DNA from: Saccostrea echinata | Taxonomy: Eukaryota | Direction: 5' to 3' | DNA length: 64,000 nucleotides | Assembly: GCF_033153115.1 (NCBI RefSeq) | Contig: NW_026889777.1 | Span: forward strand, 18,104,001-18,168,000 | Shown: positions 15,292-31,283 of the stretch, piece after piece | How the letters are laid out: each line of letters opens with the position of its first letter | Position numbering within the stretch: position 1 is the stretch's first letter | Notes under the pieces: model-generated | Databases searched by the model: none | What the model saw: the letters and a program-made list of their open reading frames with translations, nothing else | Told to the model about the DNA's origin: nothing | Position numbers and translations under genes: made by a program

Positions 15292-15412
15292 AAAAAAAAA
15301 CAAAACAAAACTGTATTTTAAGTGTTGTTGTTATTTTATGGGGAAACCCCCCCCCCCCCAAAAAAAATGAGGGGTTATAAAAACGGGGGGAAAATAATAT
15401 AACACTTCAGTC

Positions 15413-15955
15413 ATGGCTGGTGTTGATAAGGAGCCAGACTACCTTCCTGTTTACCCTAAATATGCTCTGCTCTTAAAGAGAGAAGCTACCTTTGATGATC
15501 GATGGCCCGATTCTTTAAAAGGATTAATACCCGACCTAGCCAAAGCCGGATTTTATTACAGAGGAGTGAGTGATAAGACCATCTGTTTTCATTGTGGTAT
15601 GACTTTAAACCTCTGGGAACCTACAGACCATCCTTATGTAGAACATGCTTATTGGAACCCTAATTGTCCTTACATCAATACCTATAAAGGACGTGAGTGG
15701 GTGATGATCGTATTCATTAACCATTTACTCCGGGTGGGATACAAACCTTCACCTGAAATCAAACCTCTACTAGACCAAACCTCTACAGAGATCCAGGCCA
15801 CAGGAAAATGTCACATTTGTTTAGAGAGAGAATTACAAATGGCTTTACTCCCTTGCGGACACGTATGTTGCTGTTATTTATGTGCTCCCACCTTCCGGTA
15901 TTGCCCCATCTGTCGAGCCGATGTGAAGAGAACCCAGCGTATATTTCTGTGTTGA
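15413..15955 (+). CDS. iap: Inhibitor of apoptosis (one BIR + C-terminal RING)
   Basis: BIR: REATF..WP..LAKAGFYY..CFHC-x16-H-x6-C. RING: CHIC..LLPCGH.CC.LC..CPICR. IAP-like terminus RIFL. Own TATA/Inr and AATAAA. Confidence 0.93.
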   Translation: MAGVDKEPDYLPVYPKYALLLKREATFDDRWPDSLKGLIPDLAKAGFYYRGVSDKTICFHCGMTLNLWEPTDHPYVEHAYWNPNCPYINTYKGREWVMIVFINHLLRVGYKPSPEIKPLLDQTSTEIQATGKCHICLERELQMALLPCGHVCCCYLCAPTFRYCPICRADVKRTQRIFLC

Positions 15956-16003
15956 CTATGAATAAAAAGGATTGAAACCCTATTTTTCTCTTCATTTGTC
16001 ATC

Positions 16004-16645
16004 ATGCAACCTGAGGAGACACTCCCGTCTTTTCAATTGAAACACGAATTTACCATGGTGGTAGCAGGACCTTCTAAATCGGGGAAAACGGAATTTGTCA
16101 AGAAATTGGTGGAAAATTTACATTGGAGTACCCCCATGCCACAAAAAATTGTCTGGTGTTATCGGGAATGGCAACCTGCTTACACTACTTTAACAGATCG
16201 GGTCTCCTTCATTCGAAATATTCCAGAAGACGATGAGAAATTAGTGGCCAATATAACTATTCCTCACTTACTCATTTTTGACGACATGATGGGAGGAAAA
16301 GCCATCGAATCGATCGTGGATTGGTTTACCCGTAAAGCGCATCATCGGAATACCAGTGTGATTTACATCACTCAGAACTTATTTGATCGAGCACCACAGC
16401 ATCGCACCATTAGTTTGAATGCTCATTATTTAGTGTTGTTTAAAAATCCCAGAGACAAATCTCAAATCAGTGTCTTGAGTCGACAGTTAGCCTTACCTCA
16501 TTTGATGTCGGCCTATCAAGAAGCCACCAGTGTTCCTCACGGGTATCTCCTGGTGGACTTGAATCCACAGACCCCAGACGAATACAGATTGAGAAGTCGA
16601 TTGTTTGAATGGTTGACTATACACATGCCACAAGAGTATAAATAA
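16004..16645 (+). CDS. DNA packaging ATPase (A32/FtsK-like)
   Basis: Walker A GPSKSGKT, Walker B LLIFDD, HHRNTSVIYITQNLF, RTISLNAHY, FKNPRD. Confidence 0.95.
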   Translation: MQPEETLPSFQLKHEFTMVVAGPSKSGKTEFVKKLVENLHWSTPMPQKIVWCYREWQPAYTTLTDRVSFIRNIPEDDEKLVANITIPHLLIFDDMMGGKAIESIVDWFTRKAHHRNTSVIYITQNLFDRAPQHRTISLNAHYLVLFKNPRDKSQISVLSRQLALPHLMSAYQEATSVPHGYLLVDLNPQTPDEYRLRSRLFEWLTIHMPQEYK

Positions 16646-16690
16646 AAATGTATCAACATTACACTTGTCATTCATCATTATACAGTCGTC

Positions 16691-17623
16691 ATGGGTCGAC
16701 CTCTCTCGGCCAAGAGTAAATTAGTGAAAACCTTACGACTTTTACAGCGGGAACGAGATCCTGCCAAGCGAGCCCATTTAATCGAATTAGGGCGTAAAGC
16801 CTTATTGAATTGGTTTGCTATGGGAGCTCGAAATTTGATACGTGGGGTCTTACCCATCAATAAACAGACTCAAAAGTTTATTAATAATCATCGTCAAGAT
16901 TTAAGCATCATAGCCGATAAGTCGGCGAGTGATCAAGACAGAAAAAATGCCATTTCAAAACGCGGAGGAGCCGGATTTCTAGGCGGAGTCATCATTCGTC
17001 ATTTATTTAAATGGAATGCACCTAACAAACGACGTGTCCGTCGTTTGAAAGGTGTGGTAGTCAGAGTCGATAATAAGAAACAAAGAGTGTTTCCCGATTG
17101 GATGGTGCGAGTAGGAGGAGCAGCTCAAAAGACCAGAAAGAAGAGAAAACCTCCTAAGAGAAAACCTCAAAAGAGAAAACCTACTCAAAGAAAAGCCCCT
17201 GGTGGTAGAAAGAAGAAAAAAAAAACGACTCCCAAGACTCCAGCTCAACGAAAAGCCATGCCCGAAAGTCTGAAAAACGAAATCAATCAGTATTATAAGG
17301 AACAAAGACAAAAAACTATTGGGGAGTTATTAAAGAAACAAGCTGAAATGAGAATGGATCGTCCTATGGGGCCCATAGGCAGTCAAAGAGCTACCGATTT
17401 AGAAGTGTTTCCTCGAGTCAATGTGGGAATTCCCTCTCCTAGAATTAAAGTACCCATTCACACTCCTAAAATAGCACGCTTTCAACCTCTGACCGCCTCT
17501 ACACCTACACTTCCTAAAGGAATGAGATATAAATGTCGATATTGTTCCAAAATCTACGTCACCCAGAAAAATAGAGACAAACACGAGAAGGACAAACACG
17601 ACATGTATGCTCCTCCTCCTTGA
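16691..17623 (+). CDS. Basic protein: N-terminal paralogue of ORF 17674, K/R-rich linker, C-terminal C2H2 finger
   Basis: NLIRGVLPI..KRGGAGFLG aligns with NLLKGMLPL..QKGGNILP. C-terminal YKCRYCSKIYVTQKNRDKHEKDKH. Confidence 0.75.
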   Translation: MGRPLSAKSKLVKTLRLLQRERDPAKRAHLIELGRKALLNWFAMGARNLIRGVLPINKQTQKFINNHRQDLSIIADKSASDQDRKNAISKRGGAGFLGGVIIRHLFKWNAPNKRRVRRLKGVVVRVDNKKQRVFPDWMVRVGGAAQKTRKKRKPPKRKPQKRKPTQRKAPGGRKKKKKTTPKTPAQRKAMPESLKNEINQYYKEQRQKTIGELLKKQAEMRMDRPMGPIGSQRATDLEVFPRVNVGIPSPRIKVPIHTPKIARFQPLTASTPTLPKGMRYKCRYCSKIYVTQKNRDKHEKDKHDMYAPPP

Positions 17624-17673
17624 GAGTATAAAAAGGAGAGAAACCTGGGACATGTCCTCATTTTAACCCCAGG

Positions 17674-29968: not shown

Positions 29969-30314
29969 AATGTATAAGACTTTGTATAGGGAATATAAGA
30001 ATCTTTTCAATCCCGACCTTTTCAGATAAAAATTTTGAGATGAATAGAATCAGATTGGTCTAAAAACAAATTGTATACACTTTATTTGCAGTGGGAAAGT
30101 TTAGATTTTTTTAAATAAGAACAAAACATCCCAGCGTCTAAATGTATAGACTTGTATAGGGAATATAAGAATCTTTTCAATCCCGACCTTTTCAGATAAA
30201 AATTTTGAGATGAATAGAATCAGATTGGTCTAAAAACAAATTGTATACACTTTATTTGCAGTGGGAAAGTTTAGATTTTTAAATAAACCAGGATTTTATA
30301 GACTCAGCGTCTAA
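29969..30314. repeat. Tandem ~170-bp duplication in Polinton intergenic DNA
   Basis: GAATATAAGAATCTTTTCAATCCCGACC... at 29991 and 30161. Each copy has an inverted CCAAT (GATTGG). Confidence 0.85.
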
Positions 30315-30370
30315 CGGATACATGATGACGTCATTACTAAACAATAACAAACAAAAAACTTAGTGTCTTT

Positions 30371-30880
30371 TCATTCTTTTATTTCTTTTTGGTTTAACAA
30401 TTGTTCCAAATGTTGATTTCTGCGTTGAAATCTCATTCGATCGGCTACTAGAGCCATCCATTCACTTTTCCGATCTTCGGGTGGTAAATAATGAATTTCA
30501 TTCAAGTCTGTATTAAAAGTCACACATTTCTTAGTCTCTCTGAAATTTCCACATATTTCATCCCGTATTGAATGCATATTTTCTCCATCGATTCTATTTC
30601 CTGGTAGAGTAAAATCACTTTCCTTGCTTGGGGATGGCATAAAAAAGTGTAAGGCTTTCCTAGATAGTGGGTCAGGCTTAACCCATACCATTTCTGGGGC
30701 AGAGTTTCTTTCATGCGTTGACATAGAAAATGCAGTGTAGCTAGTCTCCCCAAGTTGGGAGGATGTAACAGGGCCAGGCATTGTAACCATAAGTCTTGAA
30801 TGGTTTCTATGATGGTAGTGGCTCTCTGAAACACTTGTTCTGCCTGGGGAGGGAGAGGTTGTTCGTGTTGTTCTATCCAT
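30371..30880 (-). CDS. PPP1R15/GADD34-, ICP34.5-, DP71L-like PP1-recruiting eIF2alpha phosphatase adaptor
   Basis: C-terminal KKCVTF (RVxF-like)..EIHYL..DRKSEWMALVADRMRFQRRNQHLEQLL matches the R-x2-W-x5-DR-x-RF-x-RR signature. The start codon is uncertain. Confidence 0.85.
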   Translation of the reverse strand: MDRTTRTTSPSPGRTSVSESHYHHRNHSRLMVTMPGPVTSSQLGETSYTAFSMSTHERNSAPEMVWVKPDPLSRKALHFFMPSPSKESDFTLPGNRIDGENMHSIRDEICGNFRETKKCVTFNTDLNEIHYLPPEDRKSEWMALVADRMRFQRRNQHLEQLLNQKEIKE

Positions 30881-30933
30881 TGCATTAACAAATCATAGCC
30901 TTCTAAAATCAAAGAGTGGTATTGCTTCGACAT
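30520..30933 (-). CDS. Overlapping 137-aa ORF of unknown function (first ATG after the promoter)
   Basis: Follows TATAAATA at about 30979-30972. Open over 120 codons that overlap the PPP1R15-like frame. Confidence 0.5.
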   Translation of the reverse strand: MSKQYHSLILEGYDLLMQWIEQHEQPLPPQAEQVFQRATTIIETIQDLWLQCLALLHPPNLGRLATLHFLCQRMKETLPQKWYGLSLTHYLGKPYTFLCHPQARKVILLYQEIESMEKICIQYGMKYVEISERLRNV

Positions 30934-31108
30934 GACAATTGATTATGAACAGAAGACATGATATTTTATCTTATTTATACCCCTGTTATTTAAAATTTAT
31001 TTTTAGACTTTGGAAAAACCAATAGACTTAATTTTTTTTTTTAAATTTTTTTTTAAAAATCTATTTTTAGACTTTGGAAAAACCAATAGACTTAAATAGA
31101 ATAGGAAG

Positions 31109-31195
31109 GTGTGGGTTTTTCCCAGATCTCACATCTCACATCTCAGGAATTTCCAGATCTCAGAACGTGCTGAGCGCGTGTGGGTTTTTCCAGGA
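31109..31195 (-). repeat. Displaced inverted copy of the left sub-terminal block (about 11045-11145)
   Basis: CAGATCTCACATCTCACATCTCAGGAATTTCCAGATCTCAGAACGTGCTGAGCGCG is the reverse complement of about 11067-11122. Confidence 0.9.
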
Positions 31196-31283
31196 CCCCT
31201 TCCTTTTAAAAAAAAAAAGTATAAAAACCAGCGCAGAGAGTGTATGGGTCATCATTTTCAGTCAGAAGTCAGAGGTGTATACC

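Follow-up and report, generated by a model that had tools for sequence, protein, structure and literature searches.

Analysis of 64,000 nucleotides of the oyster Saccostrea echinata (NCBI RefSeq assembly GCF_033153115.1, contig NW_026889777.1, positions 18,104,001 to 18,168,000, hereafter the window) revealed a Maverick/Polinton element at 10945..32346 whose promoters carry a recurring set of short boxes. As judged from sequence comparison, these boxes make up a real promoter code specific to the element's lineage, in which a MEF2-type box and a cAMP response element (CRE) are the stable parts and a box resembling the kB site of Rel/NF-kB proteins is the variable part. Many accessory genes stand behind a duplicated cassette with the MEF2-type box, and we lean, if not strongly, toward the view that host MEF2 binds this box, which would set these genes off from the capsid genes as a class expressed early and in response to signals. 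An initial annotation of this DNA had proposed that Rel and MEF2 sites together place the replication and counter-defence genes under host immune signalling. Every motif that it listed was found where it had been placed, with the kB-like box of the RING gene occupying 20890-20898 and the site of the IAP gene starting at 15340.

Enrichment and Layout of the Promoter Boxes

Motifs in the 5,476 bp of intergenic DNA were counted against 1,000 shuffles each that preserved 2-, 3- or 4-mers, and against 15,935 bp of coding DNA. The kB-like 9-mer GGTTTTTCC occurred 12 times (0.18–0.53 in shuffles), the MEF2 pattern CTA(W)4TAG seven times (0.13–0.28), the kB-MEF2 pair six times (0.00) and the perfect CRE four times (at most 0.99); none of the four was present in the coding DNA. 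The enrichment that the initial annotation had offered as its own check was confirmed, with counts far above all three kinds of shuffle. The strict kB pattern GGGRNWYYCC was only marginal (3 versus 0.5–0.7, P 0.03–0.06). AP-1 and ISRE patterns showed no enrichment in the intergenic DNA. The counts are inflated because a 41-bp unit is duplicated in two arrays (21563-21676 and 30992-31128) and the Zn-knuckle cassette recurs in inverted orientation as the cluster before the polymerase gene polB, a 73-bp duplicate (11056-11128 / 31117-31189).

The order and spacing of the boxes, which three cassettes had been said to share without sharing linkers, are indeed shared, and the layout is non-random. 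The linkers differ, as claimed, yet they retain traces of shared descent, many of them ending in GATA or GA. Of 15 window promoters, 14 have TCAKT starting 29–36 nt past TATA, an arrangement consistent with host RNA polymerase II. The promoters and boxes are as follows, with the strand in parentheses where one was assigned.

11052..11161, four kB-like boxes clustered ahead of polB, within which 11056-11128 is the inverted duplicate of 31117-31189
11171..11190 (+), polB core promoter: perfect CRE, 7 nt, TATA
15340..15384 (+), IAP promoter: kB-like box opening a C run and TATA at 15376, without a MEF2 box
20890..20962 (+), RING-gene promoter: kB-like box 20890-20898, 7 nt, MEF2-like box 20906-20915, 11 nt, TATA at 20927, initiator-like TCATT
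21482..21523 (+), internal CRE and NF-I-like dyad TTGAA-N5-GCCAA, the dyad at 21509-21523
21568..21673 (-), three tandem 41-bp units of kB-like box, 5 nt and MEF2 box, one box exact and the other two changed, without a gene behind them
21713..21760 (+), relic cassette: eroded kB box, MEF2 box, TATA-like sequence
21897..21972 (+), orphan-gene promoter: kB-like box 21897-21906, 7 nt, MEF2 box 21914-21923, 12 nt, TATA at 21936, TCATT
22582..22618 (+), penton promoter: TATA of the form YTA(W)4TAR followed by TCAGT, without a box upstream (36 of 38 copies)
23678..23715 (+), promoter of the basic precursor-like gene: only TATA and TCAGT
24579..24615 (+), major capsid promoter: TATA is CTATAAATAG, a MEF2/TATA overlap, with TCATT and no upstream box
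26641..26718 (+), post-protease promoter: kB-like box 26641-26653, MEF2 box 26660-26669, 10 nt, TATA at 26680
30326..30333, single CRE lying downstream of the PPP1R15-like gene
30971..31084 (-), promoter serving the 137-aa and PPP1R15-like open reading frames (ORFs), which overlap: two units of kB box, 5 nt and MEF2 box (array 30997-31084), TATA at 30979
31113..31228 (+), Zn-knuckle gene promoter: three kB-like boxes (to 31191), TATA at 31220, no MEF2 box
32125..32157 (+), CRE and NF-I-like dyad, some 200 bp in from the right end

The cassette at 21713-21760, the minus-strand arrays at 21568-21673 and 30997-31084, the four perfect CREs and the module of CRE and NF-I-like dyad were absent from the initial annotation. 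The relic cassette is that of a second RING paralogue, which is present in sister copies and absent from the window.

The MEF2-Type Box across the Lineage

Sister regions were sampled around copies at 85–98% capsid identity or with variant cassettes (14 regions), plus eight more; 40 promoter regions were picked by capsid position, not by motif, and 12 regions at 28–31% capsid identity represented distant families. Enrichment was assessed in the non-coding DNA of 11 lineage and six distant elements with placeable ends. MEF2-type boxes were enriched in all 11 lineage elements and in none of the six from distant families of the same host. In sister elements, the comparison that the initial annotation had called for, the MEF2 box is kept across subfamilies though lost at some promoters, and the kB-like box was enriched in only four of the 11.

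The MEF2-type box sits 10–17 nt upstream of TATA. A MEF2 box 6–16 nt before GGTATAWAAA had 80 matches in the genome versus three for the control. At the RING promoter, the kB-like and MEF2 boxes are both intact in 19/19 of the closest copies holding the promoter, and in an alignment of 20 rows the boxes are invariant while three of the seven linker columns vary. The orphan promoter has its MEF2 box in 40/40 copies, and six copies of the E85 subfamily keep the box without having the orphan gene. In the branch lacking kB boxes, a MEF2 box precedes TATA at g20359 and at the RING, PPP1R15-like and Zn-knuckle genes. The exact box also recurs in independent tandem arrays, both in promoters and in the terminal repeats of sister elements, with up to six per repeat. 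Compared with the MEF2 site KCTAWWWWTAGM, selected in vitro by SELEX (consensus from the available portion of PMC3807682), the boxes match the core exactly and, in their flanks, the last position in 29 and the first in 20 of 35 contexts.

Five-base runs changed length in 1 of 102 cells inside boxes versus 28 of 145 outside, although three runs supply all 28 and the copies are not independent. Motif columns also varied less than linkers among the closest copies (P=0.0007, in an imperfect alignment).

Beyond this genome, IMG/VR yielded no relative of the major capsid protein (MCP); its 16 MEF2-TATA matches were all unaccompanied by a Maverick protein, and the composite was absent from 30 metagenome loci (126 kb, MCP 24–42%).

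The MEF2-type 10-mer was observed inside the terminal repeats of two sister elements, at about 13.138–13.157 Mb of G000:C5 (L149-L151) and about 10.318–10.336 Mb of G000:C25 (L152-L154), one with six copies per end and the other with one to two. In L158 and L159 (G000:C47, 3.450–3.461 Mb), arrays of a 16-nt unit holding the box run into TATA in both arms.

Accessory and Structural Promoters

Among the copies shown, no structural or core promoter had an upstream MEF2 box, and the proposal that structural genes form a separate class is sustained on this ground. In one E85 copy, an upstream MEF2 box was present at 6/7 accessory versus 0/7 structural or core promoters (P=0.005), a tally that includes the TTAAAAATAA variant and a leftward promoter without a long ORF; class assignments in this and the following tallies were made after seeing the data. 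The statement that structural promoters have only TATA and an initiator requires amendment, as the MCP and penton TATA boxes themselves fit MEF2 patterns. The MCP TATA is CTATAAATAG in 39/40 copies and in all 17 of the MCP promoters shown, an exact match to CTA(W)4TAG, and the penton TATA is TTATAAATAG in 36/38. These fits to the MEF2 core may be plain TATA context. Antimicrobial-peptide promoters of Drosophila offer a likeness, with a core-promoter MEF2-type site (MEF2-TATA) and NF-kB sites nearby (available portion of PMC3807682). The oyster MCP TATA likewise overlaps the MEF2 consensus, but it fits the SELEX core and not the Drosophila-type forms CTATAWAAGM or CTATATAAAGC, and the oyster accessory box is separate, upstream of TATA.

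Several observations weigh against a MEF2-bound accessory class. In the window, an upstream MEF2 box was found at only 4/8 accessory promoters versus 0/7 (P=0.077). Across the 20 closest copies, motif columns were no less variable than the remaining intergenic columns (P=0.37, in an alignment with artefacts). The g20359 box is degraded in the window, in E98 and in four copies of the 93% subfamily (E93); the Zn-knuckle and PPP1R15-like promoters of E93 have neither box, and the post-protease MEF2 box is broken in 9/20 E93 copies. The 10-mer is also present in a host 156-bp satellite and in dispersed host repeats, so a MEF2-type box also arises without the promoter layout. None of these host repeats (L163-L168; L001, L002, L013-L020) has the TATA layout, and in some a kB-like box lies 5–7 nt upstream.

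The kB-Like Box as a Variable Partner

The initial annotation had made Rel/NF-kB, together with MEF2, the common switch that activates polB and the counter-defence genes on immune challenge. We consider this unlikely. The proposal does have evidence in its favor, as kB-like boxes lie near 6/8 accessory TATA boxes in the window versus 0/6 of the other core boxes (polB left out, P=0.01), the cargo has IAP and a PPP1R15-like protein, and, as noted above, NF-kB sites are joined to MEF2-TATA in Drosophila. At the level of single promoters, the box was found in 5/6 of the IAP promoters shown, with a variant in the sixth, and in 38/40 post-protease promoters, where the MEF2 box was found in 31/40. 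The pair of kB box, 7 nt and MEF2 box also occurs in the degenerate copies M1 and M3, which are about 80% identical in DNA; the pair is therefore probably old, though the root of the tree is insecure.

Across the lineage, however, kB-like boxes were enriched in 4/11 elements and in 0/6 of the distant families (one at P=0.06). The seven elements lacking enrichment (E85/M4/M5) constitute one branch with support of 0.999 that retains MEF2 boxes and CREs, and its E85 copies have open MCP frames. With this branch in view, the sequences do not support Rel/NF-kB as the common switch. The simplest reading of the sequences is that the branch lost the box; it is only the simplest because the midpoint root falls on a long degenerate branch. 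Erosion is also seen elsewhere: in the orphan promoter the kB-like box is present in 19/20 of the closest copies and in 1/20 of the 93% subfamily, being eroded in the other 19.

The boxes match the Rel/Dorsal consensus GGG(W)4-5CC in part. The IAP and post-protease sites fit SGGAAADYCSS or SGGAAABYCCH, the Dorsal motifs quoted in the available part of PMC2577699, but the most frequent form, GGAAAAACC, departs from both at the Y position. Its third G is absent in about half of the closest orphan promoters. For TGGAAA, NFAT5 is a conceivable reader.

The cluster of kB boxes before polB, which the initial annotation had reported, does exist, but it is a local duplicate of the right-arm cassette, present in the window and the E98 copy and absent from six E85 copies; the conserved feature of polB is its CRE-TATA pair. 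The Zn-knuckle promoter of E85 copies is the reverse of that in the window, with a MEF2 box and no kB box. The post-protease cassette serves the macrodomain gene in the window and another gene in the 93% subfamily, whose macrodomain gene has neither box. Promoters and genes are shuffled relative to each other between subfamilies.

A genome count of the kB-MEF2 pair (335 versus 2 in the control) was set aside as support. It is overstated because 14/20 loci picked for unusual linkers and 10/10 further places had no Maverick protein match.

CREs and an NF-I-Like Module

CREs were enriched in 11/11 lineage elements and in 2/6 distant ones. Before polB, the CRE lies exactly 7 nt from TATA in 14 loci across subfamilies. 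Elsewhere the CRE is followed by a dyad, TTG(A/G)A-N5-GCCAA, and this combination had 374 genome matches versus 0 for the reversed control. The dyad was found in 11/11 lineage elements, in 0/6 distant ones and not at all in 42.6 kb of flank. With one perfect half, one TTG(A/G)A half and a 5-nt spacer, it resembles an NF-I site, for which the consensus is TTGGC-N5-GCCAA. The half-sites are constant while the spacer sequence takes many forms. Among the 100 matches listed, the gap from CRE to dyad is 10–12 or 19–22 nt, about one helical turn apart, a spacing that may stem from few indels. The inverted terminal repeat of adenovirus, a virus with a linear, protein-primed genome, similarly has NF-I and ATF (TGACGT) sites close to the genome ends (PMC2685984). 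In most copies, the oyster module differs in lying about 190–500 bp inside the ends; it is also internal, and it is not beside the core origin.

A Proposed Mechanism and Its Alternatives

Two MADS exons of MEF2 type are present in the host genome, along with two loci for Rel-domain proteins and one for NF-I. We propose that host MEF2 would bind the box upstream of TATA and help to recruit TBP, that CREB/ATF would drive polB, and that the CRE and NF-I-like module would serve as an enhancer or assist replication. Only in some subfamilies would a Rel-domain protein contribute at the kB-like box. General stress or calcium/MAP-kinase signalling may be the trigger, with infection as one possible source, and the capsid genes may await another cue, perhaps copy number. 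The cassette would have spread by duplication within the lineage. Immune induction is possible, and we do not favor it as a universal logic. A bolder version, which we regard as doubtful, is that the elements have a true early/late, latent-to-active switch wired to host MEF2, CREB/ATF and NF-I, and in some subfamilies also to Rel, in convergence with the control seen in herpesviruses and adenoviruses; subfamilies would have swapped kB boxes for MEF2 arrays, so that some would respond to immune challenge and others would not.

Proteins of the element itself might instead read the boxes, for autoregulation or for recognition of the origin and ends, with the likeness to host sites incidental. The confinement of the code to one lineage (0/6 distant families, 0/30 metagenome loci) would suit such readers, as would the box arrays within terminal repeats, the orphan proteins without a family and the Rep-like ORFs seen by eye in sisters. 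This explanation needs three or four host consensus sites all to be coincidental, however; Pfam revealed no TBP or transcription-factor domain in the 19 element ORFs, and the six E85 copies keep the box without the orphan gene. We judge it quite improbable.

Only a shade less credible is that host factors read the code for tissue or developmental specificity, for example in muscle or germ line, and not for inducibility. MEF2 and NF-I are known tissue regulators, homotypic MEF2-box arrays resemble strong constitutive enhancers, and so many copies of a transposon (at least 90 MCP matches) require activity in the germ line. The cargo, on the other hand, looks like counter-defence, and CRE and kB-like sites are typically signal-responsive. 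That the boxes are an unselected by-product of an ancestral AT-rich cassette copied by recombination and slippage is very improbable: the duplications are clear, linkers keep traces of homology and boxes are no more conserved than other intergenic DNA within a subfamily, yet the boxes are exact across paralogous promoters with rewritten linkers, five-base runs are length-stable inside them and the NF-I-like half-sites hold while the spacer varies.

Four contig sets presumed to be RNA were mapped on the element and flank and rejected as expression evidence. This is because host-repeat depths of up to 146,555 point to the probable presence of DNA, and genes cannot be ranked from contigs. A joint at 20608-22006 in one run (a loose end in another) was rejected as a splice and read as a deletion because a 6-base word is shared at the joint.

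Comparison with Known Systems

Virophage and Polinton-like-virus promoters copy those of a giant virus, as in the TCTA late motif of mavirus. Two promoter classes in one small element are common to these viruses and the oyster elements, but virophage promoters are read by the helper virus, whereas the oyster ones comprise TATA, an initiator and boxes of host-factor type. Other animal Mavericks/Polintons share (AGT)2 terminal repeats, a 6-bp target duplication and genes for polB, integrase and ATPase, and probably those for protease and capsid; their activation by a giant virus has been suggested, and the available part of that report describes no internal promoter code (PMC8097293, Barreat and Katzourakis 2021). 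The oyster promoters, in contrast, look host-read. The BZLF1 promoter Zp of Epstein-Barr virus is a likeness in that a promoter of a latent DNA virus is activated via host MEF2 and CREB/ATF-type factors, but Zp is a single switch promoter that controls a viral activator (PMC3620531) and the oyster cassette is repeated before many accessory genes. Titles and abstract openings listed from the Maverick/Polinton literature, mostly outside subscription papers, contained no host-factor promoters in an animal Maverick, Polinton and MEF2 not having been searched for together.

For the question of what activates animal Mavericks, this lineage offers short, repeated and testable promoter units. Subfamilies with and without the kB-like box provide a natural contrast within one genome. 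If host stress or immune signalling does drive the IAP and PPP1R15-like genes from dozens of copies, it could shape oyster infection responses, and virus-like regulation would be shown in elements usually classed as transposons.

The Element, Its Genes and Its Surroundings

10945..32346 (no strand assigned), Maverick/Polinton element, 21.4 kb, in a Saccostrea-type oyster genome
11248..15291 (+), protein-primed family B DNA polymerase (polB), PF03175 E=1.5e-57
15413..15955 (+), IAP (BIR and RING), PF00653 and PF13920
26724..27224 (+), macrodomain-like gene, phrog_335 E=1.7e-19

The assignment to the Maverick/Polinton group is based on terminal inverted repeats with (AGT)2 ends (AGTAGT...ACTACT, 52 terminal bases identical), a 6-bp target duplication (10939-10944 / 32347-32352) and Pfam matches to PF03175 polB, PF00665 rve integrase and PF04665 A32-like ATPase. 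The element encodes polB, IAP, ATPase, integrase, capsid-module genes and accessory ORFs. Among the window ORFs, Pfam gave no match for the jelly-roll major capsid, penton or protease; the capsid relatives are named F54H12.2-like, which we take to be a Polinton capsid label, and the protease motifs were recognised by eye. The nearest named capsid relatives at the protein level are from Saccostrea (98% and 83–85%), then Crassostrea and Ostrea (72–73%), other oyster genera being represented by proteins only. Within its own genome, at least 90 MCP matches at 85–100% identity were scored among 482 candidates.

The macrodomain-like gene had no match in Pfam and only weak matches to PDB macrodomains (best E=0.015), and the PPP1R15-like ORF matched PF10488 below the cut-off (E=8e-4). 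Searches including Pfam and PHROGs found no family for the orphan protein. The orphan proteins at 20359-20829 and 22016-22519 are distant paralogues (27% over 137 aa). At 30371-30933 (-), the 137-aa ORF and the 169-aa PPP1R15-like ORF overlap in different frames; both are open in three other subfamily copies, and the first ATG after TATA belongs to the 137-aa ORF. A short duplicate of the macrodomain gene's 5' end lies within the Zn-knuckle gene (31826-31879).

Post-protease ORFs that resemble truncated HUH/Rep endonucleases by eye were noted in L045 (about 7500-8870), E85 and L008 copies; they are absent from the window copy and had no match in PHROGs. At least five further Maverick families occur in the same genome, and one distant Maverick, its capsid 30% identical, either abuts or breaks up a copy of the 93% subfamily in L052 (about 1900-9900). 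The host flank of the window holds nested inverted repeats (33262-41759), a 45–46-bp tandem array (56771-57379) and an open 1,274-aa LINE-type reverse transcriptase ORF (58343-62167).

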